A stretch of 32,000 nt of DNA from the NCBI GenBank assembly GCA_943370175.1, contig CALRPU020000010.1:61984-93983 (forward strand), written 5' to 3'. The position numbers and the translations under genes were made by a program. The DNA is from Hydrogenophaga intermedia (lineage in GTDB: Bacteria; Pseudomonadota; Gammaproteobacteria; Burkholderiales; Burkholderiaceae_C). Positions 3,747 through 21,801 of this stretch are shown here, piece by piece (position 1 is the stretch's first letter; each line of letters begins with the position of its first letter). Below the pieces are notes generated by a model. It was not told where the DNA came from. It was given only the letters and a program-made list of their open reading frames with translations, and ran no database searches.

Positions 3747-3770
3747 CAGGGCTTGCCAGGACGGCCGTCG

Positions 3771-3787
3771 TGCAACACTGTGTGGCG
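3771..3787. promoter_or_regulatory. Second copy of the 17-bp motif, TGCAACAC-T-GTGTGGCG (UAS 2)
   Basis: 14/17 positions are identical to the site at 3730-3746, and the two share the core ACACTGTG. Centres are 41 bp apart, about four helical turns. Confidence 0.4.
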
Positions 3788-5792: not shown

Positions 5793-6951
5793 CGAGCCCC
5801 CTGACCTCACCTGGGGCTGGGACCTGGGCGGCGCCCACCTGAAGGCCTGCCGGTTGGAGCGGGGGGTCGTGGTGGACGTGGCGCAATGGGCATGCCCCCT
5901 GTGGCAGGGGCTGCAGCACCTGGACGCGGCACTGGCCCAGGCGCGCGCACGCTGGCCCGACTTGAACGGGGCGCCCGGGCGGCGCGCGCGGCAGGCGGCC
6001 ACGATGACGGGCGAGATGGTCGACCTGTTCCGCGACCGCGAGGACGGTGTGCTGCGCCTGGCCGCCCACCTCGACCAGGCCCTTGGCGGCGGCTTGCATT
6101 GGTTTGCCGGTCGCGGGCTCGGGTCGGCCGTCGGTCTGGCGTTGCCCTGGCAAGCCGCGTCGCGCTGGGTGGGGCCTGCGGCGGTGCCCGCGCACTGGGA
6201 GGCCATCGCCTCGGCCAACTGGCGCGCCACCGCCGAGTGGCTGGCGCTGGCCCTGGACCGCCGGGCGGCGGCCCCGGCGGGCGCCGTGCTGGTGGACATC
6301 GGCAGCACCACCAGCGACCTCATTGCGCTGCGCGGTGGCCGCCCGCTGGGCCGGGGGCAAACCGATGCCCAGCGCCTGGCCAGTGGCGAGCTGGTCTACC
6401 AGGGGGTGGTGCGCACGCCGCTGTGTGCGCTGACGCAGCGCGTGGTATTTCAGGGTCAGGCCACGGGCGTGATGAACGAATGGTTTGCCACCACCGCCGA
6501 CGTGCACCGCTTGCTCGGCACGCTCAACCCCGCCCACGACCAACAGCCCACCGCCGACAACGCGGGCAAGGACCTGCCCGCCACGCGCCAGCGGCTGGCC
6601 CGGATGATCGGCCGCGACGCGCGCGACGGCCACGACGGCGACTGGCTGGCCTTGGCTGCCCAATGGCGCGACGCCCAGCGGTCGGCCCTGCAAGATGCCG
6701 TGACCCGCGTGGTGGCCGATGCGGGCCTGACGGGCGCGCCCACGCTGGTCAGCGCGGGCTGCGGCGAAGTCTTGGTGCCGGCGTTGGCGCAGGCCCTGGG
6801 TTGGCCGGTTCTACGTTTCGCCGACCAGGTGCCCTGGGCGACCAAGGCGTCGGACGCGCTGATGGGCTGGGTTCAGGTGGCGGCGCCGGCGGTGGCCGTG
6901 GCGCTGCTCGCGGGCGGACCGCATCAGGACGAGGATTCAATGAACGATTGA
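5782..6951 (+). CDS. Hydantoinase/oxoprolinase-like H4MPT-linked C1-transfer pathway protein (MfnF-like)
   Basis: WGWDLGGAHLKA...TMTGEMVDLF...VDIGSTTSDLI matches the ASKHA/hydantoinase-A-like pattern of the family found in these islands. The ATG at 5782 overlaps the previous gene by 11 nt. Confidence 0.62.
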   Translation: MPADEPPDLTWGWDLGGAHLKACRLERGVVVDVAQWACPLWQGLQHLDAALAQARARWPDLNGAPGRRARQAATMTGEMVDLFRDREDGVLRLAAHLDQALGGGLHWFAGRGLGSAVGLALPWQAASRWVGPAAVPAHWEAIASANWRATAEWLALALDRRAAAPAGAVLVDIGSTTSDLIALRGGRPLGRGQTDAQRLASGELVYQGVVRTPLCALTQRVVFQGQATGVMNEWFATTADVHRLLGTLNPAHDQQPTADNAGKDLPATRQRLARMIGRDARDGHDGDWLALAAQWRDAQRSALQDAVTRVVADAGLTGAPTLVSAGCGEVLVPALAQALGWPVLRFADQVPWATKASDALMGWVQVAAPAVAVALLAGGPHQDEDSMND

Positions 6952-7014
6952 GCGCGACGGTGGCCGGCGTTCGACGCCCGGGCCGCGACAGCCGCGCCGA
7001 CCAGGAGACAGCAC

Positions 7015-7662
7015 ATGTGGGTGGTCAAGATCGGAGGCAGCCTGTCGCGCGACCCGCGCCTGCCGCAGTGCCTGGGCATGCTGGCCACGCTCGGCGGCGG
7101 GCGGGTGACGGTGGTGCCGGGCGGTGGTGCCTTCGCCGACGAAGCGCGGCAGGCGCAGGCCCATTGGGGCATCGACGACGTGACCGCGCACAACATGGCG
7201 GTGCTCGCCATGGCCCAGGTCGCTCAGCTGCTGCACGCCATCGAGCCGCGGCTGGTGCTGGTGGGCGACGACGCCGGCATCCGCGAGGCGATGCACGCGG
7301 GCCGCCCCTCGCTGTGGATGCCGCTGAGCTTGTTGCGCGAGCAGTCCGACGAGCTGACCAGCTGGGACGTCACCAGCGACAGCCTGGCCTTGTGGCTGGC
7401 CCGAAGGCTGCACGCCGAGCGGCTGGTGGTGCTGAAGACCTGCCCCGTCGACCCGGCACTCGGGCTGGCCGAGCTGTCGGCGCGTGGCGTGATCGACCGC
7501 CGCTTTCCGCAGTGGGCGCACGACGCCGGCTTTCCCATCGAGGTGCTGGCCTGCGACGACCTGGACCGGGTTCAGCGCGGGCTGATGGGTCAGCACCGCC
7601 AGCCGCGCTGGGCCGAGCGCGCGCGGGACACGACGGCGCGCAGCAAATTGGCGGCGCGCTGA
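7015..7662 (+). CDS. Amino-acid-kinase-fold (aspartate/glutamate/uridylate kinase family) protein, MfnE-like
   Basis: MWVVKIGGSL...VVPGGGAFAD...TSDSLA is the amino acid kinase fold signature. An AGGAGA RBS lies 8 nt upstream of the ATG. Confidence 0.72.
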   Translation: MWVVKIGGSLSRDPRLPQCLGMLATLGGGRVTVVPGGGAFADEARQAQAHWGIDDVTAHNMAVLAMAQVAQLLHAIEPRLVLVGDDAGIREAMHAGRPSLWMPLSLLREQSDELTSWDVTSDSLALWLARRLHAERLVVLKTCPVDPALGLAELSARGVIDRRFPQWAHDAGFPIEVLACDDLDRVQRGLMGQHRQPRWAERARDTTARSKLAAR

Positions 7663-7677: not shown

Positions 7678-8619
7678 TCAGGCGTCGCCGGCTTTCACCG
7701 CCAGGCGCTGGGTCCACTGGCGGTCGTTGGTGTCGGTCACCTCGGCCAGCAGCTCGCCCTCGGCCTGGGCGAGGAAGTTGAAGCGCAGGCTCGGGTTCTC
7801 GCTGAGGCTGAAATCGACGTCCGCCTGCAGCACCGGCTTGCCCGCATAAGTCACCACCACCTTGCGCACGAAGACCGGCGCCGGGGCCAGCCGGGTCAGC
7901 TGGTCGATGGCCAGGCCCGAGACGTTGGGGTGGCTGATCATCAGCTGCGCCAGCGCCGGCTTGCCCGGCACCACCGGCCCGTCCACCCGCAGGCGCATGC
8001 GGCCCAGCCGCGCCATCGCCTCGGCCAGGTCCTTGCCCGCGGGCGCCGAGCAGCCGCCCGAGGCCTTCAGGAAGCGGCTGACCATGGCCAGGCGCCCGTC
8101 CTGCAGTTCGGCCACGGCGCGCACGGTGGTGTATTCCTCCACCCTCACGCGGGTCTCGATGTCGGCGCGGCCACTGTCGGGGGTGAAGGCGAACACCGCG
8201 CCCATCGGCGAGGGGTTGTTGTCGATGACCAGGTGGATCTTGCGGATCCAGCGCGTGGGCGACTGCGCCACCTGGGCCCGCACCGCCACCGGCACCACGG
8301 CGGCGTCCTCGGCCCGCACGGGGGTGTCGAGCACGAGCAGGTCGGTCGCGTTGTCCAGAATCGCGCGGTCGCCGAACAGCGACTGGCGCAGCTGGGCCCA
8401 GTGCTGTTCGGGCGTCGGCTTCGGGGCGGCCTGTGCCTGGGCACGGGCGGGTGCCAGCGCCAAGCCCAGTCCCATCGCCGCGCAGCCCGCCACCCCGGCA
8501 GCGCCGATCAGGTGCAGGCAGTCGCGCCGCTGAAAGCCGGTGTCGCCCTGAGCTCTGATCGCCGGGTTCAAGCCGACCGCGGTGGCCGGGCGTTCGGGGT
8601 GCGAATGGCGATGGGTCAT
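7678..8619 (-). CDS. Exported fused SoxY-SoxZ-like carrier protein (quinoprotein dehydrogenase-associated SoxYZ-like carrier type)
   Basis: A twin-arginine signal (FQRRDCLHLIGAAGVAG...APARA) is present. A SoxY-like domain ends in SGGCSAP, which parallels the SoxY GGCGG carrier-Cys motif. A SoxZ-like beta domain follows (ISHPNVSGL...VTYAGKPV...). I chose the ATG at 8619 with a GGAG RBS; the track ORF extends to 8655. Confidence 0.72.
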   Translation of the reverse strand: MTHRHSHPERPATAVGLNPAIRAQGDTGFQRRDCLHLIGAAGVAGCAAMGLGLALAPARAQAQAAPKPTPEQHWAQLRQSLFGDRAILDNATDLLVLDTPVRAEDAAVVPVAVRAQVAQSPTRWIRKIHLVIDNNPSPMGAVFAFTPDSGRADIETRVRVEEYTTVRAVAELQDGRLAMVSRFLKASGGCSAPAGKDLAEAMARLGRMRLRVDGPVVPGKPALAQLMISHPNVSGLAIDQLTRLAPAPVFVRKVVVTYAGKPVLQADVDFSLSENPSLRFNFLAQAEGELLAEVTDTNDRQWTQRLAVKAGDA

Positions 8620-8719
8620 GGGGGCTCCAGTGGTGCGGGTCGGCCCGCCCGGCATCGGGCGCGCCGACGCGTGATCAGCTGGTCAGCATAGGAGCCGACC
8701 GACCCTTTGTCGATCAGGG

Positions 8720-9505
8720 TCAACCAAGCTGACACACCCGCCGCGTTGCCTCGCACAGGTGGTGCAGGCGCGCCGGGTCCAGTGCGCCGCTGCGGTCGCC
8801 GGCGCACACGGCGCTGCGGAAGCCGGCGAAGTCGGGCGCCAGGCTGCGCAGCGCGGGCAGTTCGTCCTGGCGCAGGGCGCCGGCCAGGCCGGCCAGGCAG
8901 CGCCCCTCGTGCTGCACCATGGCGATGAACTGGGCCAGCGCGGCGGCGTCCACACGGTCCAGCAGGCTGCCTTGGCCCTTGGCCGCCGTGTCCAGCATCA
9001 GCGCCGGAAAACGCCGCAGCGCCAGCGCGCGCGCCACTTGGGCGCGGTTGACGCCGGCGTCGGCCAGCAGCACGGGCACGATGGCCGCCGGGTGGGCGGC
9101 CAGCGCGTCCAGCAGCGCCAGCGCGCCGGGCTGCTGGTCGATGCCCACCTTGACGTAGTCGACGCCGCTGGCGGCCACCGCGTCCACCCGCGCCAGCACC
9201 GCGCCCAGCGGGGCGCTGGGCAGGTCGCCGGTGGTCGCGCTGATGAGGGCCTTCGGCGCGTGCTCACGCAGCCACGGCACGATCTCCCGCGCCACCGCGT
9301 CGGGCAGGCTGCCCAAGGCGCCGGCGCTCGGCTCTTTCAGGTCGATGAAGTCGACCCCGGCGGCCGCGGCGAGGCGCGCCTCGTCGAGGTTGCGCACACT
9401 GACGAGCAGCCGCAGCGGGCGCGCGAGGCGTTGAGCGGCCGCCGCCGCCGCTGTGGAGGCCGATGCCGATGCCGAAGCGTCCCCCGCGGGAATCGGCGCG
9501 CTCAC
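8720..9505 (-). CDS. mfnB: (5-formylfuran-3-yl)methyl phosphate synthase (methanofuran biosynthesis, DUF556 family)
   Basis: LLVSVRNLDEA...GVDFIDLKEPSAGALG...VDYVKVG...MLDTAAKGQGSLLD...LAGLAGAL...AGFRSAVC aligns along its length with archaeal MfnB as I recall it. I chose the GTG at 9505, which forms a GTGA overlap with the DUF447 stop. That start is uncertain. Confidence 0.82.
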   Translation of the reverse strand: MSAPIPAGDASASASASTAAAAAAQRLARPLRLLVSVRNLDEARLAAAAGVDFIDLKEPSAGALGSLPDAVAREIVPWLREHAPKALISATTGDLPSAPLGAVLARVDAVAASGVDYVKVGIDQQPGALALLDALAAHPAAIVPVLLADAGVNRAQVARALALRRFPALMLDTAAKGQGSLLDRVDAAALAQFIAMVQHEGRCLAGLAGALRQDELPALRSLAPDFAGFRSAVCAGDRSGALDPARLHHLCEATRRVCQLG

Positions 9506-10077
9506 GAGGCGGCCCCGGCGCGGTGGGCGGCCACCGCCTCGTTGAGCCAGTCCCAGGCCTCGCGCTCGGCGTCGCCGGCGGTGCGGTCGATGGCGATCTG
9601 CAGGTGGGCCCATTCGCGGTCGACGCGCTCGGCGCTGAGCAGGTGCAGCCGGCTCACCAACACCGCGCCCTCCACCACGGCGGCCTGAGCGCGGTTCATG
9701 CCGCCGAAAGGGGCATTGGCCACGGTGGCGGTGCGCCGCAGGGTCAGCGTTGGGCGCTGGGCGTCATGGTCGTGGTGCTCGAGGCGCAGCGGGGCGTGCA
9801 CCAGCGCGCAGTCCAGCCGCACGCCGTCGGCCGGGTCGTCGAGCGCCACAGTGGGCCACTGGCGGCGCCCGGTCACGCAGCCGGCGAACACGCGCACGTC
9901 GGTGATCAGGTTCAACACGGCGCGGCCGGTGGCCTCGATGTTGGCCAGCGTGGTCGACGGGCGAAAGGGCATCAGCAGCACCTGATCGCCGCGCAGCCGC
10001 ACGCCCATCGGGGCGATGTGCACGGCGCCGTCGGCAGCGCGGGTGGTGACGACGGTCTCGAAGATGGGCTCGGTCAT
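9502..10077 (-). CDS. DUF447-family (FMN-binding split-barrel-like) protein associated with H4MPT gene islands
   Basis: The 191-aa ORF begins MTEPIFETVVTTRAADGAVHIAPMGV... The size, N-terminus and conserved position between the DHPS-like gene and mfnB fit this family. Confidence 0.68.
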   Translation of the reverse strand: MTEPIFETVVTTRAADGAVHIAPMGVRLRGDQVLLMPFRPSTTLANIEATGRAVLNLITDVRVFAGCVTGRRQWPTVALDDPADGVRLDCALVHAPLRLEHHDHDAQRPTLTLRRTATVANAPFGGMNRAQAAVVEGAVLVSRLHLLSAERVDREWAHLQIAIDRTAGDAEREAWDWLNEAVAAHRAGAAS

Positions 10078-10099
10078 GACAGGCGGTGGGGCGGTCGGG

Positions 10100-11647
10100 T
10101 CAGGCCGCGGCGGGCGGCTCGGTGCTCGCCTGCGCGCCGGGGCTTGGGTTGGGGGCCGACGTTGGGGACGGCGTCGGCGTCGGTGTCGGTGTCGAACCCA
10201 GGTCCGGGTTCATCGGCCGCATTGCAGTCTTGTGGGTCAGCGTGGTGCCGGGGGCGCACCAGGCCTGGTCATCGCCGGTGCCGCCGGGCGCGGGATCCGC
10301 CGCCACGCCCCAGTCCAGCGGCTGGTCCTGCACGTAGCGCTTGCCGAGCTGCCAGGCGATGTGCGCGCGCGCCGCTTCCACGCCCATGTAGTAGGCGTGC
10401 GCGGCGTCGTGTTCCAGGCCGAGCTGCGGCCACAGGGCGTAGGGGTCCTGCACCAGGCGCAGGCCATCGCGGTTGTAGACATGCAGCCCGGCCTCGGACA
10501 CCTGGATGCGGAAATTCGGGTCCTTGACGCCCGCCGCCACCGTGGCGATCTCGTCGGCGCTGTCCGGGAAGGGCCGCTTGGCGTGCACCGTCATCAGCCC
10601 GTCCGACAGGCCCTTGGGCAGCACGCGGTGTCGCTGCGCGGCGTGCATCACGCGGCGCGCCAGGTCGGCTTCGCGCACCGCGCGGCGGGCGTGCGGGCTG
10701 ACCTGCGTGGTCAGCACCGCGCCCACGTCCAATTCGGCCGCGATGCCGAACAGCATGGCGTTGATCCCGCTGGTGTCGGCTTCGGTCAGCTCGGTCAGGT
10801 TGCCCACGCCCAGCATGATCGGCGCGGTGGGGAAGCGCTCGCGCAGCCGGTGGTAGCGCACCAGCGAGGCCAGCACGCCAAAGGGAATCGGGTCGAGGAT
10901 CGCGTCCGCATAGAAGGCGCGGCCACGCGCCTGGAACTGCTCGACCAGTTGCCACAGGCTGGCCTCGTCCTGCGGCTGTCGCGGGATCAGGATCGGCGTG
11001 GACGCGACCTCGTCGGCGATCCACGCGGTGTCCAGCGTCAGGCTCAGCAGGTAGTCGGCGCCGGCGTGGCCGCCGCGCAGCAACTCCTGGGCGTTCAAGG
11101 AGTCGACGCTGACGCGATGGCCGGCCTGCTTCAGCGCCCGCACCGCGTCTTCCAGGTGGTCGAACGGGGTGTCGGGCAGCGCGCCCAGGTCGATGACGTC
11201 GGCGCCATCGCGACGCAGCAGGTCGGCCCGGGCCACGATGGCGGGCACGTCCAGCCGTGGCGCATCGACGATCTCGGCAAAGATCAGCACCGATTGCTCG
11301 TCCAGGCTGATCGGCCGGGCCTGCCGCTTGAAGTGGGCGGGCAGGTCCTTCAGTTCTTCCGGGCCGCGCTGCACCGGCATGCCGTAGTGGGCGCTGAGCG
11401 CGTCCAGGTCGGCGCGGCAGCGGCCGGGCAGGATCAAACGGTCGGCGTCAACGGGCCGGGGCACGCGGCGCTGGATCAGCTCGCCTGTCATCAGCGCGGC
11501 CACTTGCACGCCGATCTCCCGCACCGCCCAGGTGAAGGGGGCCGCGCCCTGCTCGGTGTCCATGCCCTCGAGCACGCGTTTCAGCGCCGGTTCGGCCAGT
11601 CGGCCGGTCAGGAAGAGGATGCGTTCCACGGGGGCGGGCAAACTCAC
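10100..11647 (-). CDS. Dihydropteroate synthase-like protein of H4MPT biosynthesis islands, with a Pro/Thr-rich C-terminal tail
   Basis: GADVIDLGA...SVDS...LGVGNLTELTEADTSGINA is a pterin-binding DHPS-type barrel pattern preceded by an N-terminal extra domain. The last ~68 aa are low complexity (TPTPTPTPSPTSAPNPSP). Confidence 0.8.
   Translation of the reverse strand: MSLPAPVERILFLTGRLAEPALKRVLEGMDTEQGAAPFTWAVREIGVQVAALMTGELIQRRVPRPVDADRLILPGRCRADLDALSAHYGMPVQRGPEELKDLPAHFKRQARPISLDEQSVLIFAEIVDAPRLDVPAIVARADLLRRDGADVIDLGALPDTPFDHLEDAVRALKQAGHRVSVDSLNAQELLRGGHAGADYLLSLTLDTAWIADEVASTPILIPRQPQDEASLWQLVEQFQARGRAFYADAILDPIPFGVLASLVRYHRLRERFPTAPIMLGVGNLTELTEADTSGINAMLFGIAAELDVGAVLTTQVSPHARRAVREADLARRVMHAAQRHRVLPKGLSDGLMTVHAKRPFPDSADEIATVAAGVKDPNFRIQVSEAGLHVYNRDGLRLVQDPYALWPQLGLEHDAAHAYYMGVEAARAHIAWQLGKRYVQDQPLDWGVAADPAPGGTGDDQAWCAPGTTLTHKTAMRPMNPDLGSTPTPTPTPSPTSAPNPSPGAQASTEPPAAA
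10170..10193. repeat. Hexanucleotide tandem repeat (GGCGTC x2, GGTGTC x2)
   Basis: Read directly from the sequence. On the minus strand it encodes the TPTPTPTP run in the tail of the DHPS-like protein. Confidence 0.85.
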
Positions 11648-11653
11648 ACCGGC

Positions 11654-12217
11654 TCAGGCGAGCCAAGCCAGGCCCAGCGCAGCGAGCCGCGCGCTGAGCG
11701 CTGCTTCCAGCTCGGCGGGCGAGGCCACGACCTGGCAGAACTCGATCTGCCGCAGGCGCTCGACGTTGTCCAGTTCGAGGCGCCGCGGGCGCAGCGTGAC
11801 CCAGTCGTGCGGCGCGCGGGTCACCACCACGGGTTCGGTGTCGCAGGCGAACACCAGGCCGGGGATGCCCAGCTTGCCAGCCTGCGCGAACATGTTCGTG
11901 GGCAGGGTGTCGCTCAGGCCCAGCGCGCACTTGGCCACGGTGTTGCTCGTGGCCGGGGCCACCACCACCGTGTGGTAGGTCTGTTCGTACAGGCTGCCCA
12001 CCGGCACCGCGCTGGCGGTCTTGTCGCGGTAGACGCGAAACCGCGGCTTCAGCGCGTCGAGCTTGTGGCCGTACATTGGCAGCACTTCTTCGGCTGCGGC
12101 CGACAGGTACAGGTCGACGTCGGGCAGGCGGGCCGCGATGGCCAGCGATTCGTCCAGGAAGTGGCCGGAGCCGGTCACGGCCCAGGCAAAGCGGCGCGCG
12201 GCCGGGGGAGGGGTCAT
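11654..12217 (-). CDS. Flavoprotein of the AfpA/DmrB type (probable dihydromethanopterin reductase)
   Basis: FAWAVTGSGHFLDES...VVVAPATSNTVAKCALGLSDTL is the flavoprotein (PF02441-like) signature. It is the first gene of the minus-strand cofactor operon. I chose the ATG at 12217, inside track ORF 11654..12400. Confidence 0.7.
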   Translation of the reverse strand: MTPPPAARRFAWAVTGSGHFLDESLAIAARLPDVDLYLSAAAEEVLPMYGHKLDALKPRFRVYRDKTASAVPVGSLYEQTYHTVVVAPATSNTVAKCALGLSDTLPTNMFAQAGKLGIPGLVFACDTEPVVVTRAPHDWVTLRPRRLELDNVERLRQIEFCQVVASPAELEAALSARLAALGLAWLA

Positions 12218-12404
12218 GTCGTCGGGCAAGGGGTCTGGGGTCGGCCGTGGGGTCACACAGGGCGCGCGGTGCGGCGCAGGCGGTGCTGGCAATTGTCGGG
12301 CCCGGCCCGCCGCGCGGCGGGCCTGGGGGCATGGCCGGCGCAGGCGGCCTGTCGCAAACGCCGGGTGGCAACCGCCCGTTCGCGACCGCCCACCGCGCAC
12401 GGGC

Positions 12405-14468
12405 TCAGCCCGCCTGGGTCACGGGAATGTGCAACTTGTGCATGCGCCGGTACAGGGTGTTGCGGCTCACGGCCAGGTCCTTGGCCACCTGGCTGACGTT
12501 CCAGCGGTGCGATTCCAGCAGGTCCAGCAGGTCCTGGCGCTCCTGGGCCTGGGCCGGCCCCAGCGCGGGCGCGTCGTCTTGGGCTTCGACGGGGTCGTGC
12601 GCAGCCAACGGCCCGCTGCCGGGCACCCGTGCCCGCGCGCCTTGCAGCGAGGGCAGGTGCTCCGGGGTCAGCGTGCCGCCGTCGGCCAGGGCCACGCCGC
12701 TGCGCAGCACGTGGCGCAGTTGCCGCACGTTGCCGGGCCAGGGGTGGTGCATCAGCAGGTCCCAGGCGGCGGGGCTCACGGGGGCGTCGGGGGCGCCCTC
12801 GGCGGTCAGCAGGTCGCGGATCAGCTGGGCCCGGTCGCTGCGTTCGCGCAGCGCCGGCAGGTTCAGCTCGATGCCGGCCAGGCGGTAGTACAGGTCTTCG
12901 CGGAAGCGGCCTTCGGCCACCAGTTGCGGCAGGTGACGGTGGCTGGCGCTGAGCAGCTGGAAGTCCACCGGGTGCGCCTCGTCCGTGCCCAGCGGGGTGA
13001 CCATGCGCTCGTCGAGCACGCGCAGCAGCCGCGCCTGCAGTGCCAGCGGCATGTCGCCGATTTCGTCGAGGAACAGCGTGCCGCCGTCGGCCTGCGCGAT
13101 CTTGCCGCGCCGCCCGCGCCGCTCGGCCCCGGTGAAGGCCCCGGCGCGGTAGCCGAACAACTCCGCCTCGATCAGGTTCTCGGGCAAGCTGGCGCAGTTG
13201 ATGGCGACGAAGGGGCCGTCGTGACGTGGGCTGCCGGCGTGAACCGAGTGGGCAAACACCTCCTTGCCGACCCCCGTTTCGCCGCACAGCAGCAGCGGCG
13301 TGCCGCGCGCGATGACGCGCCGCGCGGTGGCCAGGTGGGTTTGCAGCCGCGGGTCGCCGTAGGTGGCGGTGGGCGGTGCTGCGCGGTGGGCAGCACTGGA
13401 CGCGGTGCCGGACACCACCAGCGCGGTCGGGCTGGCGTGGCCTCCGCCCAGGGCCGTGGCCCCCGCGCGGCCGTTGAGCATCGACCGGCGCCCGGGCGTC
13501 GCCGCTGGGTCGTCGGCGCTGCGCAGCGCGCTCGGCTCGTCGTGCGCGGGTTGGCGCGCCACCGCAAAAAAGCGGTGTGCCGCGTTGGCGCGGTAGGTCA
13601 CCACCGGGTGGAAGCTCGCGCGCTGGCTGCGCTCCAGGATGTCGTCCAGCGTGGTCTGAAAGATCTCGTCCAGCCGGCGTCGGCGCACCTCGCGCACGGA
13701 GTTCAGGCCCAGCTGGAACAACGCACTGCGGTTGGCGGCCAGCACCTGGCCCTCGTGGTCGACGATCAGCTTGCCTTCGTGCAGCGTGTAGACAAACTCG
13801 GGGCGGCTGTGGAAGTGGATCGGGTGGGCGTCGCGGAAGCGGTGGTCGATCAGCCGGTTTTCGATCATCCGGGCCGTCATGCCCAGCAGCACCAACAGGT
13901 GCTGCTGCGACATCTGCGAGCGGCTGGTGACGTCCAGCACCGCGCACATTTCGCCCGCCGGGTCGTAGACCGGCACGGCCGAACAAGTCAGTTGCGCATA
14001 CTGGGTAAAAAAGTGCTCATCCAGGCGCACCGCGATCGGCGCGGCCGCCGCCACGCAGGTGCCCATGCCGTTGGTGCCGGCCTCGGCCTCGCTCCAGACC
14101 GCGCCCACCTGCAGGCCCAGGGGTGCGGCGTTGCGCTCGAATTCCGGCGAACTGACCATGTGCAGGATGACGCCGGCGGTGTTGGTCAGCACCACGGCCG
14201 ATTCCGGGTCGCCCAGCTGCTGGTACAGCGTGGTCATTTCGTAGCGCGCGCAGTCGATCACGTCGGCCATGCGGGCGTGGTGGCTGGACAGCTCGTCGCG
14301 GCTGAGCACCGGCGGGCGCCGCGGCTGGCGCGGGTCCAGCCGGTACTGGTTCAGGCACCGGGCCCAGGAATGCGCGACGACGTCGCTGGTGGTGTCGCTG
14401 GCGCCGCGTGCAACCACGTCAAGAATCCGGTCGGCATGCCGATGGGGTTCATGCAGCGAGGTGGACAT
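12405..14468 (-). CDS. Sigma-54-dependent transcriptional activator, AcoR-like (N-terminal GAF-type sensor, AAA+ domain, C-terminal HTH)
   Basis: It carries Walker A GETGVGKE, the sigma-54 contact loop GAFTGA, Walker B GGTLFLDEIGDM, PWPGNVRQL, and the C-terminal HTH NVSQVAKDLAVSRNTLYRRMHKL. The N-terminal region has GAF-like sequence (GTNGMGTC...VPVYD..GE..AVLDV). Confidence 0.92.
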   Translation of the reverse strand: MSTSLHEPHRHADRILDVVARGASDTTSDVVAHSWARCLNQYRLDPRQPRRPPVLSRDELSSHHARMADVIDCARYEMTTLYQQLGDPESAVVLTNTAGVILHMVSSPEFERNAAPLGLQVGAVWSEAEAGTNGMGTCVAAAAPIAVRLDEHFFTQYAQLTCSAVPVYDPAGEMCAVLDVTSRSQMSQQHLLVLLGMTARMIENRLIDHRFRDAHPIHFHSRPEFVYTLHEGKLIVDHEGQVLAANRSALFQLGLNSVREVRRRRLDEIFQTTLDDILERSQRASFHPVVTYRANAAHRFFAVARQPAHDEPSALRSADDPAATPGRRSMLNGRAGATALGGGHASPTALVVSGTASSAAHRAAPPTATYGDPRLQTHLATARRVIARGTPLLLCGETGVGKEVFAHSVHAGSPRHDGPFVAINCASLPENLIEAELFGYRAGAFTGAERRGRRGKIAQADGGTLFLDEIGDMPLALQARLLRVLDERMVTPLGTDEAHPVDFQLLSASHRHLPQLVAEGRFREDLYYRLAGIELNLPALRERSDRAQLIRDLLTAEGAPDAPVSPAAWDLLMHHPWPGNVRQLRHVLRSGVALADGGTLTPEHLPSLQGARARVPGSGPLAAHDPVEAQDDAPALGPAQAQERQDLLDLLESHRWNVSQVAKDLAVSRNTLYRRMHKLHIPVTQAG

Positions 14469-14490: not shown

Positions 14491-14632
14491 ACCATTCAAG
14501 CGGCGCAGTGTGGCCCAAAATGCCCCTGGTGCCTTGCGCAATTGCCCTGATGCGGGCGCGAGGCAAGGCGGCTGCGGGTTATCCCGTAAACGTGCCGACA
14601 GCGCACCACCCGCGCGCCGCCAGCCACGCCGA

Positions 14633-14647
14633 TGGCCCACAAGTTGC
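14633..14647 (+). promoter_or_regulatory. Candidate sigma-54 (-24/-12) promoter for the folB-like/mptG/mtdB/mch operon
   Basis: TGGCCC-ACAAG-TTGC matches 9 of 10 consensus positions, with the GG and GC correctly spaced. The leader would be about 45 nt, running to a strong GAGGAGGAG RBS and the ATG at 14705. Confidence 0.45.
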
Positions 14648-14704
14648 GAACATGCACGCCCAACCAACCCGAGATTCCGGGCCCACGCCCCGAGGAGGAG
14701 ACCG

Positions 14705-15244
14705 ATGAACACCCCCCGCTTGAGCCAGCCGGCCGACCTGGGCGCCCCGGGCGCTGCGTCGGCGGCCGCCGAGCCGCTGGACCTGATCTTCATCGAAGGC
14801 TTCCGCGGCAACACCGTCATCGGCATCCACGACAGCGAACTGCACCGCCCGCAGCCCCTGGTCATCGACGTGTGCGCCGGCCTGCCCCGCGCGGGCGCCT
14901 GCGACACCGATCAGATCGTCGACACCATCGACTACGGCGTGCTGCGTGAGCGCCTGGGACGCTTGATGGCGGAACATGGTGTGACGCTGCTGGAAGCGCT
15001 GGCGGAACAGATTGCCCACATCGCCATCGATGAGTTCGGCGCGCACTGGGTGCGCGTCAAGGTGGTCAAGCCCCGCAAGTTTGACGACGTCGAGGCGGTG
15101 GGCGTGCAGATCGAGCGTCGCCGCCCGGCCGTGGCCAAGGCCGCCGGCCCGACGGCCAGCGCGGCGGTCGCCTCGGCGGCCAGCGGCAGCGGCGCGGCCG
15201 TGCTCCGCCTGATCGGCAACGGCATGGTGCCGGCCGCCCTTTGA
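14705..15244 (+). CDS. Dihydroneopterin aldolase (FolB) family protein, pterin branch of H4MPT biosynthesis
   Basis: LIFIEGFRGNTVIGIHDSELHRPQPLVIDV...DTIDYGVL...VRVKVVKPRKF is the FolB fold pattern. A strong RBS precedes the ATG at 14705, which lies inside track ORF 14408..15244. The C-terminal tail is Ala/Ser-rich. Confidence 0.8.
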   Translation: MNTPRLSQPADLGAPGAASAAAEPLDLIFIEGFRGNTVIGIHDSELHRPQPLVIDVCAGLPRAGACDTDQIVDTIDYGVLRERLGRLMAEHGVTLLEALAEQIAHIAIDEFGAHWVRVKVVKPRKFDDVEAVGVQIERRRPAVAKAAGPTASAAVASAASGSGAAVLRLIGNGMVPAAL

Positions 15245-15273
15245 CCCCAGGCCGCGTCGCCAACCCCGCCCGG

Positions 15274-16386
15274 ATGAATCACCACCACGCCGCCGGTCTG
15301 GTCCCCCGCGAACTGGCGATCGACGCGCCCGACGCTGCGGCATGGCACGGCGTGCGCGTGCAGGCCCCTGGGCGATTGCACCTGGGCTTCCTCGACCCCG
15401 CCGCCAGCCTCGGGCGGCGGTTCGGCAGCCTGGGCCTCGTCGTCGACGGCTTGGAAACCGTGGTGGAGCTGCAGCGGGCCGACGGCAACGCCGACCCCCG
15501 CGCGGGCGACAGCGCGGCCGCAGACACCAGTGAGGCGCTGGCCGAGCTGCCGAGGGCGCGGGCCCACCTCGAGGCGATGCGCCGCGCGCTGGACGCCGAC
15601 GGCGCGTGCCTCGGCCCGGTTCACCTGCGCTTGAGGTCCGTGCTGCCCGCGCATGCGGGCCTGGGGTCGGGCACGCAGCTGGCGCTGGCGGTGGGCCGCG
15701 CGGCCTGCGCGCTGGCCGGTCGCGACTGGCCCGCCACGCGCCTCGCGTCGGTCACGGGGCGTGGCTTGCGTTCGGGCGTCGGCATCGCCGGCTTCGAGCA
15801 GGGGGGGCTGCTGCTGGACGGCGGGCCGCGCGCCGATGGTCAGCCCGCGGCCTTGCTGTCGCGCATCGATTTGCCCGACGCCTGGCGCGTGCTGCTGGTG
15901 CTGGACCCGCGCCAGCGCGGTCTGAGCGGCCCCGCCGAACGCGCGGCCTTGGCCACGTTGCCGCCGTTGCCGCGCGAGTCCGCCGCCGAGATTTGCCACG
16001 AGGTGCTGATGCGCGTGCTGCCCGGTGCGGCCGGGGCCGAGTTCACGCCTTTCGCCGCCGGGTTGTCGCGCATGCAGCGCATCCTCGGCCAGCACTTCGC
16101 GCCGGCCCAACAGGGCTTGGCCTACACCAGCGCCGCGGTGGCCCGGCTTTTGGACTGGGTGGGCGCCCAGGCCGGTGCGGCCACGGGGCAAAGCTCCTGG
16201 GGACCCACCGGGTTTGCGGTGCTGCCGTCCGAATCGGTTGCATGGTCGCTGGTGGATGCGGCGCGGGCGGCGGGCCTCGTCGACCCGGCGCTCGACCTGC
16301 GCGTGGTCACGGCGCGTCGCCACGGTGCCCAGGTGGCGGTGTTGCCCGTGGCGCCCAAGGTGCCCGCCGATTGCGCCTCGGCGTGA
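15274..16386 (+). CDS. mptG: Beta-ribofuranosylaminobenzene 5'-phosphate synthase (GHMP-kinase fold)
   Basis: VQAPGRLHLGFLD...LPAHAGLGSGTQLALAV...SGVGIAGFEQGG is the beta-RFAP synthase pattern. The start is ambiguous between the TTG at 15241, which overlaps the folB-like stop, and the ATG at 15274. Confidence 0.8.
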   Translation: MNHHHAAGLVPRELAIDAPDAAAWHGVRVQAPGRLHLGFLDPAASLGRRFGSLGLVVDGLETVVELQRADGNADPRAGDSAAADTSEALAELPRARAHLEAMRRALDADGACLGPVHLRLRSVLPAHAGLGSGTQLALAVGRAACALAGRDWPATRLASVTGRGLRSGVGIAGFEQGGLLLDGGPRADGQPAALLSRIDLPDAWRVLLVLDPRQRGLSGPAERAALATLPPLPRESAAEICHEVLMRVLPGAAGAEFTPFAAGLSRMQRILGQHFAPAQQGLAYTSAAVARLLDWVGAQAGAATGQSSWGPTGFAVLPSESVAWSLVDAARAAGLVDPALDLRVVTARRHGAQVAVLPVAPKVPADCASA

Positions 16387-16414
16387 TCCCCCTCCTTCCC
16401 TGAACCCCAAGCCC

Positions 16415-17317
16415 ATGGAACGTCCCTACATCCTTCACATGTTCACTCCGGGGGCGCAGATGAGCCCCTTCGACGTCAACATGGCGGCCGACGCCGGCTA
16501 CCAGGTCATCACGCCGTACTGCGGCGTGGGGCTGGACGCGGTCATGGGGCTGACCCAGGACGCGATTTTTTCCCGCGGACCCAAGGGCGTGGCACGCACG
16601 GGCATCTTCATCGGCGGTCGCGATGTGCTGCTGGCCGCCGACATGCTGGAACGCGCGCAGCAGTCGATGGTGCCGCCGTTCGCGGTGTCGTTGTTCGCCG
16701 ACCCCAGCGGCTCCTACACCACCGCCGCCGGGCTCGTGGCCTGCACCGAGGCCGCGCTGCGCCGCCACCACCAGACCGACCTGGCCGGCAAGCGCGTGCT
16801 GCTGTTGGGCGGCACGGGCACGGTGGGGCGCATTGCGGCGGTGTTGTGCGCGCAGCTCGGTGCGACCGCCTGGTTGTCCAGCCACAAGGGCCAGGCCGCC
16901 GCGCAGGCCGCGGCCGAGCAGACCGGTCAGCGTTTCGGCGTGAATCTTCACGGGGTGTCGGGCCAGGGCCAGGCCGACGTGCACGCGGCACTGGCCGACG
17001 CGGACGTCGTGATGGGCGTGGCCGCCGCCGGTGTCCAGGTGATGACCGCCGCCGACCGCGCGGTCGCCCAGCGCCTGCTGGTGGCCGCTGACGTCAACGC
17101 CGTGCCGCCGGAGGGCCTGGCCGGTGTGGGCGTGATGGACAACGGCAAGCCGTTGCCCGATGGCCGCGCCGTCGGCATTGGTGCGCTGGCCATCGGCAAC
17201 ATCAAGTATCAGGTGCAGCACCGCCTGCTGATGCGCATGCGCGCCGCCGACACGCCGGTGGCCTACAGCTTTCCCGACGCCTTCGCGGTGGCCCGTGAGG
17301 TGCTCGCTGAAGGCTGA
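16415..17317 (+). CDS. mtdB: NAD(P)-dependent methylene-H4MPT dehydrogenase (MtdA/MtdB family, MtdB by context)
   Basis: MERPYILHMFTPGAQMSPFDVNMAADAGY...IFIGGRD...DPSGSYTTAAG...LLGGTGTVG. The gene lies adjacent to mch in the H4MPT island. I chose the ATG at 16415, inside track ORF 16025..17317. Confidence 0.85.
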   Translation: MERPYILHMFTPGAQMSPFDVNMAADAGYQVITPYCGVGLDAVMGLTQDAIFSRGPKGVARTGIFIGGRDVLLAADMLERAQQSMVPPFAVSLFADPSGSYTTAAGLVACTEAALRRHHQTDLAGKRVLLLGGTGTVGRIAAVLCAQLGATAWLSSHKGQAAAQAAAEQTGQRFGVNLHGVSGQGQADVHAALADADVVMGVAAAGVQVMTAADRAVAQRLLVAADVNAVPPEGLAGVGVMDNGKPLPDGRAVGIGALAIGNIKYQVQHRLLMRMRAADTPVAYSFPDAFAVAREVLAEG

Positions 17318-18599
17318 TGCCGGCGCGAGCGCCCCACTCGGCGGTGGCCATGGCACGCTGGTGGTGGCGGGCCTGAGTGCGCGTTGGCTCGTCGAAGACG
17401 CGGTGCGCGCCGGCTGGCGCGTGGTGGCGCTCGACCTGTTCGGCGACGCCGACACGCGCCGGCTCGCCGCCCGCTGGGCGCCCATCGGCACCCCCGAGCG
17501 CTTGTCCATCGACGGCGCGCAATTGCGGCACGAGCTTGCGCGGGCCGCGGCCCTTGACGGCGCCTTGGCGTGGGTGGCCGGCGGCGGCACCGAGGCGGAC
17601 CTGAGCCTGCTCGACGCCGGCGGCGGGGCCCTGCCGCGCTGGGGCATGGCCCGCGAGACCATCGCCGCATTGCGCGATCCCTCGTGCTTTTTCGGCCTGC
17701 TCGACCGCCTGGGCCTGCCGCACCCGCCGTGGCGCCGCACGGCACCGGACGCGATGCAGGGCTGGGTGGTCAAGCACCCGGGCGGCAGCGGCGGCTGGCA
17801 CATCCGCGACGCGTCGGCGATCAACCCTAGCCCGGCCGATCCGCGCCAATACTTTCAGCGCCAGGTGCCCGGACGATCGATGTCCGCGCTGTGCCTGGCC
17901 GACGGGGCGCGGGGCCGGGTGATGGGCCTGTCCGCACAGCGCGCGCTTCCCTGGCCACCACCGCCGGCCGCGCCGCGCCATCCATGGGTGTGGCAAGGGG
18001 TGGTGGGGCCCGTGCACCAGCCCGCCTTGCAGGCGCGCGTGGCGCAGGCGCTGGCGGCGCTGGTGCCGGCCCTGGGCCTGTCGGGGCTGTTCAGCCTCGA
18101 CTTCATGGCCGATGGCGACGAGGCCTGCTTCCTGGAGTTGAACCCGCGCCCCTCGGCGAGCCTGCAGGTGCACCCGCCGCCCGGGCCGCACGGGTGGCTC
18201 GGCGCCCACCGCGAGGCGCTGGCCGGCCGGCTGCCCGCGCCATCCGGGCTGCTGCCGACCGCGTGCTGTGGCGTCGCCACCCTGTGGGCCCCCTGCGACC
18301 TGCGCTTGAGCACCGGCATCGCCGCCGCCTTGGCCGCCGACCCCGCCGTCTGCGACCTGCCCCACGCGGGCAGCGCTTTCAACGCCGGCGAGCCGGTGTG
18401 CAGCTTGCGCAGCACGCTGTCGACGGACGACCACGGCAGCGCCGACGCGCCAGCGCAGGTCGAAACCCGCTTGCAGCAACTGCTGTCTCCCTGGCGGCGG
18501 CGCTTGATGAATGATGCCGTCGTCGCCGCACGCGCGCCGACGCTCCTCTCCCGATCCACCGAACCGACCGTGCCCCGGCACGAGGAAGCCGCCCCATGA
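17295..18599 (+). CDS. ATP-grasp family protein of H4MPT-linked gene islands (function unassigned)
   Basis: LVVAGLSARWLVEDAVRAGWRVVALDLFGD...GLFSLDFMADGDEACFLELNPRPSAS is an ATP-grasp C-terminal motif. The GTG start at 17295 overlaps mtdB by 23 nt, and the true start may be a downstream GTG. Confidence 0.62.
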   Translation: MRCSLKADAGASAPLGGGHGTLVVAGLSARWLVEDAVRAGWRVVALDLFGDADTRRLAARWAPIGTPERLSIDGAQLRHELARAAALDGALAWVAGGGTEADLSLLDAGGGALPRWGMARETIAALRDPSCFFGLLDRLGLPHPPWRRTAPDAMQGWVVKHPGGSGGWHIRDASAINPSPADPRQYFQRQVPGRSMSALCLADGARGRVMGLSAQRALPWPPPPAAPRHPWVWQGVVGPVHQPALQARVAQALAALVPALGLSGLFSLDFMADGDEACFLELNPRPSASLQVHPPPGPHGWLGAHREALAGRLPAPSGLLPTACCGVATLWAPCDLRLSTGIAAALAADPAVCDLPHAGSAFNAGEPVCSLRSTLSTDDHGSADAPAQVETRLQQLLSPWRRRLMNDAVVAARAPTLLSRSTEPTVPRHEEAAP

Positions 18600-19639
18600 G
18601 CGACACGCCCACCCAGACCCTCATCGAGGGGTCCACCGACCCCGCCCGGCCCGAGTTCGCCGCGCTCAGCGTCAACCAGCTGGCGGCCACCGCCCTGAGT
18701 CGTCTGGTCAACGAGGCGGACCGCCTGCGCGTGTCGGTCCAGCGCGACGAGCGCGGGGTCACGCTGATCGACGCTGGCATCGCCGTGCAGGGCAGCGTCG
18801 AGGCGGGTCTGCTGGTGGCCGAGGTGTGCCTGGGCGGCCTGGGCTCGGTGGCGCTGGCCGCGGGCGCACGCCAAGGCTGGCCCAGCTGGCTGCAGGTGAG
18901 CAGCTCGCAGCCGGTGCTGGCCTGCCTGGGCAGCCAATACGCGGGCTGGAGCTTGTCGGCCACGAAAGAAGAAACCGGCGGCCGCCGGTTCTTCGCGCTG
19001 GGCTCCGGGCCGGCGCGGGCGCTGGCCTGCAAGGAGCCGCTGTTCGCCGAACTGGGCTACCGCGACCGCGCCCCGCACGGCGTGATCGTGCTGGAGGTCG
19101 ACCGCCTGCCGCCGCCCATCGTCATCGACAAGCTGCTGCGCGATTGCGCGCTGCCCCCCGAGGGCCTGAGCATCGTGCTGACCCCCACCACCAGCCTGGC
19201 CGGCACCACGCAGGTGGTGGCGCGGGTGCTGGAGGTGGCGCTGCACCGTGCGCACGCGCTGGGCTTCGAGCTGGCCCACATCGTTGAGGGCAGCGCGGTC
19301 GCGCCGCTGCCGGTGCCCACGCCCGACGGCGTGCAGGCCATGGGGCGCACCAACGACGCCATCCTCTACGGCGGCCAGGTGCACCTCAGCGTGCGCGGCG
19401 AAGCGGCCGCCGCGCAGGCCCTGGCCAAGGCCTTGCCGTCGCTCAATTCCAAGGATTTCGGGCGCTCCTTTGCCGACTTGTTCACCGACGCGGGCCACGA
19501 CTTCTACAAGCTGGATGGCGCCCTGTTCGCCCCGGCCGAGGTGTGGGTCAGCCACCTGGACTCCGGCCGCACCTGGCACGCCGGCCGACTGGACATGGCC
19601 CTGCTGCACCGGCTGTGGGGCGAAGAAGCCAGCGCGTGA
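18596..19639 (+). CDS. mch: Methenyl-H4MPT cyclohydrolase
   Basis: SVNQLA...GVTLIDAGI...GSVEAGLLVAEVCLGGLG...ACLGSQYAGW...LGSGPARA is the Mch family pattern. The start forms an ATGA overlap with the preceding gene. Confidence 0.92.
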   Translation: MSDTPTQTLIEGSTDPARPEFAALSVNQLAATALSRLVNEADRLRVSVQRDERGVTLIDAGIAVQGSVEAGLLVAEVCLGGLGSVALAAGARQGWPSWLQVSSSQPVLACLGSQYAGWSLSATKEETGGRRFFALGSGPARALACKEPLFAELGYRDRAPHGVIVLEVDRLPPPIVIDKLLRDCALPPEGLSIVLTPTTSLAGTTQVVARVLEVALHRAHALGFELAHIVEGSAVAPLPVPTPDGVQAMGRTNDAILYGGQVHLSVRGEAAAAQALAKALPSLNSKDFGRSFADLFTDAGHDFYKLDGALFAPAEVWVSHLDSGRTWHAGRLDMALLHRLWGEEASA

Positions 19640-19655
19640 GCGCCGGGGCACGGTG

Positions 19656-20654
19656 ATGGGGGCTGCGGTGCAACGCGTTCCGCTGCGGCCAGCCCGCGTG
19701 GCGATCATGACCGACGAGGTCGGCTGGCACACCCGCCAGTTGCAGCAGGCCTTGCGCCAGCGCGGCGTGGAGGGCCGCTGCGTCGACCTGGCCGATGGCC
19801 GCGTCGACACCACCGCCAGTTGGCATGGCCTGGTGTTGCCGGGCTTCAGCCGGCACGGGCCCGGTGGGGGCCTGCCTGACGCCGTCATCGTGCGTGGCAT
19901 CGCCGGCGGCAGTTTCGAACAGGTCACCCGCCGGCTCGGCCTGCTGCACGCCCTGCGCGACCTGGGCGTTCCGGTCTACAACGACGCGCGCGCCATCGAG
20001 CGCAGCGTCGACAAGGCCATGACCAGTTTGCTGCTGCACCAGGCCGGCGTGCCCACGCCGCCGTGCTGGGCGATGGAGTCGGCCGAGGACGCCCAGCGCC
20101 TGGTGATGCGCGAAAGCGCGGCCCGGCGCGCGCTGGTGCTCAAGCCGCTGTTCGGCTCACAGGGCAAGGGCCTGCTGCGGGTGGGCTGGGTGGCGGGCCG
20201 CCATGTGCCGCTGCCCGACCTGAAACGCGGGCACGGCCGCTACGCCTACCTGCAACGCTTCATTCCCCCCGCCCGGCCAGCGAGCGAGGGTCCCGGCCAC
20301 GACTGGCGGGTGCTGGTGGTGGGCGGGCGGGCCGTGGCCGCCATGCGCCGCGTCAGCGCGCACTGGGTGCACAACGTGGCGCAGGGCGGTCAGTGCGTCG
20401 CCCAGTCGCTGCACGAGGCCGAGGGCCCGGCCCTGGCGCGTTGCGCGGTCGCCGCCGCCGCGGCCTTGCAGATGGACTACGCCGGCGTCGACCTGATGGC
20501 CGCCGCCGACGGCCTGCAGGTCATCGAGGTCAACGGCGTGGCCGCGTGGCAAGGCCTGCAGCGCGTGACACCACAGCGCATCGCGCCGATGCTGGTCGAC
20601 GACCTGCTGCAGCGCGTGGCCGCGCCGCTGCGCGCCGGTGGGCGGCGGGCCTGA
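19656..20654 (+). CDS. RimK-type ATP-grasp ligase, probable H4MPT:alpha-L-glutamate ligase (MptN-like)
   Basis: VYNDARAIERSVDKAMTSLLLHQAGVPTP...VLKPLFGSQGKGL...DWRVLVVGGRAVAAMRR...WVHNVAQGG...DYAGVDLM is the RimK family pattern. Alternative starts are the GTG at 19698 and the ATG at 19707. Confidence 0.75.
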   Translation: MGAAVQRVPLRPARVAIMTDEVGWHTRQLQQALRQRGVEGRCVDLADGRVDTTASWHGLVLPGFSRHGPGGGLPDAVIVRGIAGGSFEQVTRRLGLLHALRDLGVPVYNDARAIERSVDKAMTSLLLHQAGVPTPPCWAMESAEDAQRLVMRESAARRALVLKPLFGSQGKGLLRVGWVAGRHVPLPDLKRGHGRYAYLQRFIPPARPASEGPGHDWRVLVVGGRAVAAMRRVSAHWVHNVAQGGQCVAQSLHEAEGPALARCAVAAAAALQMDYAGVDLMAAADGLQVIEVNGVAAWQGLQRVTPQRIAPMLVDDLLQRVAAPLRAGGRRA

Positions 20655-20712
20655 GGGGCTTGGCCCGCGCCCGGTCGATGCCGTGACCCATGCCCCCCAC
20701 CATGACCTCACC

Positions 20713-21672: not shown

Positions 21673-21801
21673 GACCCTTGGTCCTCAGTGTTTGTTCGGG
21701 GGTCTTGCTGGCACGGAATATGTACCGTTGGTGGCTGCGCAGGGGGTCATTGACCCGCGCTGAACCCTTCAAAGACAACACAGACAGATCGGAGAAATTT
21801 C

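Follow-up and report, generated by a model that had tools for sequence, protein, structure and literature searches.

The stretch of DNA analysed here, called the window throughout, comprises 32,000 nucleotides of Hydrogenophaga intermedia (contig CALRPU020000010.1, positions 61,984 to 93,983 of the forward strand). At positions 12405-14468, on the minus strand, it carries a gene for a sigma-54 enhancer-binding protein (bEBP), whose product we call REG. The gene is embedded in an island for formaldehyde oxidation tied to tetrahydromethanopterin (H4MPT) as well as methanofuran, and its distribution, its synteny and the promoters around it indicate that REG is most likely a dedicated sigma-54-dependent activator of this island. 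Many methylotrophs oxidise formaldehyde mainly by the H4MPT-linked pathway, as do non-methylotrophs that are exposed to it by demethylations or by way of methanol derived from pectin and lignin. Research on the enzymes and cofactor genes of the pathway goes back 25 years.

The regulator gene and its neighbourhood

The open reading frame at 12405-14468 translates without a stop into 687 amino acids, and the codon-position G+C singled out a single gene at these coordinates in a window of about 72% G+C. AGGAG stands 8 nt ahead of the ATG, and the orthologs start at the matching position. The gene and the parts of its product are as follows.

12405-14468, minus strand: REG gene, 687-aa sigma-54 enhancer-binding protein, heading the string REG-dmrB-DHPS-like-DUF447-mfnB (open reading frame, Pfam, ortholog alignment)
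13554-14387, minus strand: sensor module, GAF followed by PAS-like (DhaR(N)-type), residues ~28-305 (Pfam, phmmer, AlphaFold2, Foldseek)
13365-13553, minus strand: low-complexity Ala/Pro/Ser/Gly linker of 63 aa, residues 306-368
12648-13355, minus strand: AAA+ sigma-54 interaction domain with lid, residues 372-607 (Pfam, motifs)
12435-12542, minus strand: C-terminal Fis-type helix-turn-helix (HTH) domain, HTH_8, residues 643-678 (Pfam)

Pfam matches were obtained for GAF (residues 73-205), Sigma54_activat (PF00158; 372-535, E 5.9e-62), AAA_lid_14 (557-607) and HTH_8 (643-678, E 6.2e-9). The hallmarks of a bEBP listed in a first-pass annotation of this DNA could all be located: the Walker A motif GETGVGKE at 396-403, GAFTGA at 443-448, the Walker B motif DEIGDM at 468-473 and the C-terminal HTH. 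In the GAFTGA loop, G443, F445 and G447 are invariant across alignment A1, and A444 and T446 are nearly so. Thus REG combines an AAA+ domain with Walker A and B motifs, an intact GAFTGA loop and a C-terminal HTH, in a genome that has rpoN (G000:C3) and candidate -24/-12 targets. REG is predicted to drive ATP-dependent open-complex formation at its candidate target promoters. The same annotation had described an unusually long linker of about 90 aa between sensor and AAA+ domain, which was overstated. The linker measures 63 aa, of which 59% are Ala, Pro, Ser or Gly, and orthologs have linkers of 32 to 91 aa. It is a variable, floppy and fast-evolving segment and no distinguishing trait of REG. 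The source genome also encodes two full-length REG paralogs (40-43% identity) and at least eight further sigma-54 activators.

The Pfam and NCBIfam scans of the window, on which the map of the island is based, place H4MPT and methanofuran operons on both sides of REG, as the first reading of the sequence had it. The neighbouring genes are listed below in map order.

570-2252, minus strand: fhcA, candidate target operon, running beyond the window edge
2249-3571, minus strand: fhcB, candidate target operon with fhcA (570-3571)
Minus strand, listed between fhcB and the SoxYZ-like gene: HisA-like gene
4767-7662, plus strand: methanofuran-type ATP-grasp, hydantoinase-like and kinase genes
7678-8655, minus strand: SoxYZ-like gene
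8720-9613, minus strand: mfnB (MfnB)
9502-10077, minus strand: DUF447 gene
10100-11647, minus strand: DHPS-like gene
11654 to ~12217, minus strand: dmrB-like flavoprotein gene
8720-12217, minus strand: the whole co-oriented block downstream of REG, from the dmrB-like gene to MfnB
14705-15244, plus strand: folB, divergent from REG
Plus strand, between folB and mch: GHMP/mptG-like, mtdB and ATP-grasp genes
18596-19639, plus strand: mch
Plus strand, between mch and fae: RimK-like ligase and CitG-like genes
21802-22311, plus strand: fae
14705-22311, plus strand: the whole candidate target operon from folB to fae
From 22434, plus strand, after fae: xoxF-type pyrroloquinoline quinone (PQQ) dehydrogenase and accessory genes

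REG comes first in a string of genes for cofactor biosynthesis, and the main oxidation operon is divergent from it. For the dmrB-like gene, a start at 12217 is more probable than one at 12400, since the 61 upstream codons of the long open reading frame have no match in the Ramlibacter ortholog. With this start, the spacer between REG and dmrB is 187 nt.

Distribution, synteny and phylogeny

In order to follow REG through related genomes, we used 150 genomes of the source's GTDB family and a query consisting of the sensor only. A full-length cut of E<=1e-140 undercounts the orthologs across the order, as the variable linker splits the match, and the sensor-only query replaces it. When the whole protein was used to search for related loci, generic AAA+ motifs dominated the result and most matches were paralogs, the Paraburkholderia locus L002 being the sole ortholog.

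Sensor orthologs were found in 11 of the 150 family genomes at 62-83% identity, the next best match being at 39%. The mch gene (PF02289) is present in 13 of the 150. REG occurs in 11 of these 13 and in none of the 137 genomes that lack mch, so that all 11 carriers of REG are mch-positive. A genome of the same genus, G081, lacks REG, mch and fhcB, all three. The two mch-positive genomes without REG are of different kinds. G043 has a completeness of 78%, and its contig stops at the very position where REG should start, whereas G008 is complete and REG is absent from between its dmrB and folB genes.

Wherever the contigs permit the measurement, REG lies 3-6 kb from mch in the family genomes. The order REG-dmrB-DHPS-like-DUF447-mfnB with folB divergent is kept in all fetched loci, those of Paraburkholderia and Ramlibacter included. 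Outside the family, the layout is retained in Paraburkholderia (L002, L126) and in another family (L127) at 52-56% identity. Among 66 mch-positive Burkholderiales outside the family, a sensor of at least 41% identity (E<=1e-66) was found in 25, and the remainder reach 39% at most, which gives a distribution with two modes. In at least 11 of these 25 genomes the REG-like gene is on the same contig as mch, 4-24 kb away. Tractable carriers of REG include Paraburkholderia xenovorans LB400, Rubrivivax gelatinosus and Piscinibacter sakaiensis 201-F6, the last of them with an 82% ortholog. The profiling against the mch/fhc island that had been proposed earlier therefore shows REG confined to the mch-positive genomes of the family sample. 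The first-pass annotation had named orthologs lying away from H4MPT genes as the finding that would speak for an unrelated regulon; in every genome with a checkable contig, they are syntenic with these genes.

A FastTree phylogeny of 54 members of the protein family places the 13 H4MPT-linked REGs in one clade with a support of 100. Two more distant H4MPT-linked proteins (L128, L129) are placed with proteins whose genes adjoin xoxF clusters. The nearest relatives without H4MPT linkage (39-48% identity) are found beside clusters of xoxF-type PQQ dehydrogenases (L130, L003, L004, L006, L007, L011, L019, L037), which also contain MoxJ-like, SoxYZ-like and MBL genes and homologs of the window's orf26866 and orf27695. 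These neighbourhoods suggest a wider clade of sigma-54 activators linked to C1 metabolism. At L130 (G314:C1:2233000-2252999), in a genome without mch, TGGCACGCTACATGC is present ahead of xoxF.

The product of orf27695 (window 27695-28096) is a small protein of 133 aa with no family assignment. In other lineages, its homologs are frequently the closest neighbours of the regulator (L002 8737-9018, L126 8721-9023, L128 9320-9601, L129 11858-12136), and they are either divergent from it or situated in the interval from fae to folB.

Predicted sigma-54 promoters and candidate enhancer sites

Three -24/-12 elements of interest lie ahead of the candidate target genes in the window. They are listed together with the candidate enhancer sites and with one weak match in the spacer downstream of REG.

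3586-3600, minus strand: P_fhcB, TGGCACATGCCTTGC, exact TGGCAC-N5-TTGC, ending ~15 nt ahead of the fhcB ATG (3571)
14633-14648, plus strand: P_folB, TGGCCC-N5-TTGCG (TGGCCCACAAGTTGC at 14633-14647, one mismatch), 57 nt ahead of the folB ATG (14705), divergent from REG
21709-21724, plus strand: P_fae, TGGCACGGAATATGTA (TGGCACGGAATATGT at 21709-21723), with a consensus -24 and a non-canonical -12 (TGT/TGA for TGC), 93 nt ahead of the fae ATG
3730-3787, minus strand: two ACAC(A/T)GTG-type palindromes of the ACA-N3-TGT class, candidate upstream activator sequences, 130-185 nt upstream of P_fhcB
14506-14514, plus strand: CAGTGTGGC half-site ~120 nt upstream of P_folB, which may be an enhancer or serve autoregulation
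12289-12303, minus strand: weak -24/-12-like GGGCCCGACAATTGC in the REG-dmrB spacer, not conserved in the compared loci

The elements recur at corresponding positions in other genomes. The folB element, defined by GG-N10-GC spacing with at most two mismatches, is present at 11 loci including the window. An element of the GGAAC-N6-TTGCT type precedes mptG at 7 loci, where mptG starts a separate operon. Exact or near-exact TGGCAC-N5-TTGC is found ahead of fhcB at 5 loci (the window, L115, L121, L122 and L125), about 30-80 nt from the start codon. The best conserved of all the predicted sigma-54 sites is that of fae. An element resembling TGGCAYGGAAYRTGAT lies 75-120 nt before the fae ATG in all 17 compared loci other than G008; REG was located in 16 of these 17, and in the remaining one, L124, the contig edge falls where REG would lie. 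Its -24 part is a perfect TGGCAC, and its -12 part reads GTGAT or ATGTA in nearly all genomes. This conserved non-canonical -12 might tune the basal expression of fae. The two sigma-54 promoters that had been proposed earlier and the third, weaker candidate at fae are thus all conserved across genomes. A conserved "promoter" upstream of the DHPS-like gene, GGCATCGTGTTTGCA, was rejected, as it really consists of the GIVFAC codons inside dmrB.

The fhcB upstream region was also examined in 10 further mch-positive genomes, which had been picked as lacking a full-length ortholog before the sensor-only search was made. No -24/-12 site is present at fhcB in 7 of them, and their best sensor match is at most 39% except in G157 (46%). 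The site is present in the other 3, two of which (G428 and G201) carry a REG-like gene.

Palindromes of the form ACA-N3-TGT, typically GACAGTCTGTC or CACACAGTGTG, are enriched close to these promoters. Within 4.2 kb of sequence, taken from 30-220 nt upstream of predicted promoters, 12 were counted, whereas the other parts of the loci predict 1.1. Of the 6 mptG promoters 5 have such a palindrome, as do all 5 fhcB promoters, and outside this window their centres lie 60-110 nt from the -24 element. G428 has a perfect GTGACA-GAG-TGTCAC 113 nt upstream of its fhcB -24/-12 site. When the genome was scanned for a -24/-12 site with ACA-N3-TGT upstream, fhcB alone stood out, and the other 11 matches resemble coding sequence. 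Two copies of the CAGTGTGGC type of 9-mer are found upstream of P_fhcB. With 109 copies in the genome, this 9-mer (CAGTGTKKC) is weak by itself and not diagnostic.

At fae, a conserved TGACA-N3-TGTGCC site is seen in many relatives (L113-L122). It falls about 250-370 nt upstream of fae and 160-250 nt upstream of the -24, in coding sequence at the 3' end of the CitG-like gene. It could be a fae enhancer or merely conserved codons. This window does not have it and has CTCAGTGTTTG instead, directly before the fae -24.

The complete genome without REG provides a natural control. G008 has kept the whole H4MPT island, which is represented by L123 (G008:C11:110000-129999) and L131 (G008:C10:50131-54426). 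No -24/-12 element is present in it at folB, mptG, fae or fhcB, and no ACA-N3-TGT palindrome was found anywhere in the 20-kb island or at fhcB. G008 thus looks like a natural rewiring to another promoter type, in which REG and its promoters would have been lost jointly.

Proposed regulon, candidate signal and relation to known systems

Taken together, the phylogenetic profile, the synteny, the promoters and the G008 control support the reading, put forward earlier as a possibility, of a dedicated regulator of the C1 pathway. According to the mechanism that we propose, dimers of REG would bind the ACA-N3-TGT palindromes through the C-terminal HTH, and a signal perceived at the GAF-PAS module would relieve the inhibition of the AAA+ domain. 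The AAA+ domain would then form a hexamer, whose GAFTGA loops, with ATP, would remodel the sigma-54 holoenzyme to the open complex at the promoters of folB(-mptG-mtdB-mch), fae(-xoxF) and fhcBA. This would switch on together the making of the cofactor (folB, mptG, glutamate ligases), the capture of formaldehyde (fae), oxidation (mtdB, mch) and the release of formate (fhc).

Several observations weigh against this reading. The number of -24/-12 sites in the window at no more than one mismatch is 3, compared to 4.4 expected from shuffled sequence, and hence shows no excess; the significance of these sites derives from their position and their conservation in relatives, not from their count. A -12 with TGA or TGT, as at fae, is rarely found in classical sigma-54 promoters. 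As P_fhcB ends about 15 nt from the ATG, its predicted transcript would be nearly leaderless, which is unusual. There is no Shine-Dalgarno sequence between this element and the ATG, and the spacing is equally tight in L115 and L125. The folB promoters have half-sites only, of the (G/C)ATTxTGT(G/C) type; these lie beside REG's own start and might serve its autoregulation. Most mch-positive families of Burkholderiales (f3, f21, f31 and others) lack REG, and since whole families of mch-positive genomes have no REG-like gene, the circuit appears to be lineage-specific. Finally, the compared genomes are kin, so that the counts and the binomial p-value overstate their independence.

These observations can be used to weigh three other views of what REG controls. 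If the -24/-12 matches and palindromes were non-functional look-alikes in GC-rich DNA, with REG acting elsewhere or idle, the window counts would match the shuffled expectation, as they do, and the absence of further convincing sites from the genome-wide scan would fit as well. However, the position and orientation of the elements are conserved over many diverged intergenic regions and all of them are gone together in the REG-less G008, which makes this explanation improbable. A little more probable, though still very unlikely, is that REG governs cofactor biosynthesis alone, namely its own operon and folB/mptG, while fae and fhc answer to another bEBP or sigma factor. REG is physically coupled to dmrB, the DHPS-like gene, mfnB and folB, the half-sites upstream of folB differ from the motifs at mptG and fhcB, the fae element is non-canonical, and the genome has at least eight additional sigma-54 activators. 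Against such a restricted regulon stand G008, where the fhcB and fae elements have been lost along with REG, the single class of palindrome that is common to mptG and fhcB, and the REG-like carriers G428 and G201, which retain the fhcB sigma-54 site that 7 of the 10 tested mch-positive genomes lack.

The least probable of the three, and very unlikely, is that REG merely happens to be located in the island and, as a regulator of the AcoR/EatR type, serves an unrelated regulon for acetoin, ethanol or ethanolamine. It belongs to the same domain family as the acetoin and ethanolamine regulators, and JGI and NCBI name its orthologs "acetoin dehydrogenase operon activator" and "EatR". Nevertheless, the 32-kb window contains no aco or eut genes and no genes of E1/E2/E3 type, REG co-occurs strictly with mch and reaches no NCBIfam equivalog cut-off, and the ortholog named EatR is itself within an H4MPT island. 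This ortholog, from Ramlibacter monticola (66% identity; L125, JAEQNE010000002.1, 578275-596248), carries the NCBI name "sigma-54-dependent transcriptional regulator EatR" in a locus that is a copy of the present island and has no eut genes. Because of this context and because REG attains none of the equivalog cut-offs, these genes have probably been given the names "EatR" and "acetoin operon activator" wrongly, by over-propagation.

The N-terminal part of REG is an AcoR-like sensor, as the first-pass annotation had proposed: GAF is matched by PF01590, and PF26965 (MimR_N) is recorded for P0001 and its orthologs. A MimR_N/GAF module followed by a PAS-like domain, the arrangement of AcoR/MimR/EatR-type sensors, is found by these matches, by the AlphaFold2 model and by the DhaR(N) fold. 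With phmmer, the sole solved relative by sequence is 4LRX, the N-terminal part of Escherichia coli DhaR (E 1.8e-6, residues 28-294). An AlphaFold2 model of the sensor, built from 52 homologs, has a pLDDT of 94.7, and a Foldseek search with it returned three DhaR(N) entries on top (best E 7.5e-17, ~15% identity). Sensors of this type occur in 4812 representative clusters. Within REG, Cys73 is kept in every one of the 12 closest orthologs, and the 40 other family members sampled all have Ile or Val in its place. Cys38, Cys138 and Cys162 are conserved family-wide. The Pfam and NCBIfam scans gave no match of REG to CsoR/RcnR or MarR/DUF24, the families of the FrmR- and HxlR-type formaldehyde sensors.

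The most likely single ligand is free formaldehyde, to which we assign somewhat less than an even chance. This choice is based on the response of the characterised relative EatR to acetaldehyde, and on the nearest sister clades, which adjoin xoxF-type or ethanol-type PQQ alcohol dehydrogenases whose products are aldehydes. The effectors of AcoR, MimR and AcxR are likewise small carbonyls, i.e. acetoin/acetaldehyde or acetone. Most of the remaining probability belongs to a close C1 proxy such as methanol, or to an enzyme partner. That REG activates the island in response to something other than free formaldehyde is a serious possibility that we rate at roughly one in three; the signal might be an alcohol (methanol or another), formate, an intermediate such as a pterin or methylene-H4MPT, or an enzyme partner. 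In the last of these variants, REG would read out the condition of a pathway protein in the way that DhaR does with DhaK and DhaL. The closest solved relative of the sensor, DhaR(N), was crystallised with these protein ligands and responds to protein partners rather than to a small molecule; the identity to DhaR is, however, just ~15%. The sister clades beside xoxF clusters make methanol equally plausible, and methanol or a pathway intermediate would suit the gene context as well as formaldehyde does. On the other side, the characterised EatR answers the aldehyde product and not the substrate, and REG is linked to formaldehyde-consuming genes also where xoxF is not adjacent (L114-L120). More tentative than formaldehyde as the signal, and rather unlikely, is a direct receptor of a new class, in which covalent or tight binding of formaldehyde, with the involvement of Cys73, would switch the GAF-PAS module; Cys38, Cys138 and Cys162 may take part.

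The gene neighbours of the two paralogs of the source genome, which differ from each other, also count in favour of formaldehyde. The one at L132 (G000:C1:262000-279999) adjoins an aldehyde:ferredoxin oxidoreductase of the tungsten type, together with a cytochrome c and a flavoprotein reductase, and the one at L133 (G000:C21:50000-67999) adjoins an FMO/Baeyer-Villiger-like monooxygenase.

Compared with known systems, REG appears to be a standard AcoR/EatR-type bEBP with a new and biologically coherent regulon. EatR of Pseudomonas aeruginosa (PA4021), which acts with RpoN, responds to acetaldehyde, a toxic intermediate, and not to the growth substrate ethanolamine (Lundgren et al. 2016, as reviewed in PMC5821096). 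Like REG, it is a sigma-54 bEBP that adjoins its own target operon and is divergent from it, and it has the same AcoR-type N-terminal sensor, AAA+ domain with GAFTGA and Fis-type HTH. However, EatR targets eutBC and an aldehyde dehydrogenase, whereas the candidate targets of REG are H4MPT genes, and the 32-kb window is devoid of eut genes. The Pseudomonas homologs that we retrieved, which may or may not be EatR, are ~41-42% identical to REG and fall outside its clade. AcoR and MimR/AcxR share with REG the N-terminus of MimR_N (PF26965) and GAF and the dependence on sigma-54, but their regulons are acoABCL, mimABCD and acetone carboxylase, REG has no acoABCL-type neighbours in the window, and Cys73 is specific to the REG clade.

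DhaR of E. coli (PDB 4LRX, 4LRY, 4LRZ) has the same GAF-PAS-AAA+-HTH order as REG and differs from it in sensing the proteins DhaK and DhaL; it is sigma-70 dependent and lacks a functional GAFTGA. REG scores 268.7 bits against the NCBIfam DhaR model (NF008485), whose cut-off is 551, and the match is limited to residues 375-685, i.e. the AAA+ and HTH part. E. coli FhlA, too, belongs to the GAF-type sigma-54 activators; the C1 compound that it senses is formate, whose disposal pathway it turns on. In contrast to REG, it has tandem GAF domains of another subfamily and controls formate hydrogenlyase, and its NCBIfam model matches REG in the AAA+/HTH part only (168.5 vs 830 bits). The known formaldehyde-responsive regulators are FrmR, HxlR, NmlR/AdhR, FlhRS and EfgA/TtmR, and the 2022 review that describes them names no sigma-54 activator and no transcription factor acting on H4MPT pathway genes (PMC8879981). 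All of these regulators do an equal physiological job, matching the removal of formaldehyde to its load, but they have no sequence relationship to REG, and none of them is a sigma-54 activator or acts directly on the genes of the H4MPT pathway.

The first-pass annotation knew of no sigma-54/bEBP circuit for the H4MPT pathway, and our full-text literature searches likewise gave nothing relevant: no link of sigma-54 or RpoN to H4MPT genes, formaldehyde or methylotrophy was found described, although a passing mention in older papers is possible. If the proposed role is correct, REG would be the first dedicated transcription factor that directly controls H4MPT pathway genes. A sensor-activator with four sigma-54 promoters would explain how a costly pathway is kept silent until needed in Burkholderiales, among them genera that matter for applications, e.g. 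Piscinibacter/Ideonella, Rubrivivax, Ramlibacter and Paraburkholderia. REG is also a candidate new sensor of formaldehyde or C1 compounds that would be useful for biosensors and synthetic methylotrophy and, were it a direct receptor of formaldehyde, it would offer a ready-made, formaldehyde-inducible and tightly off sigma-54 switch.

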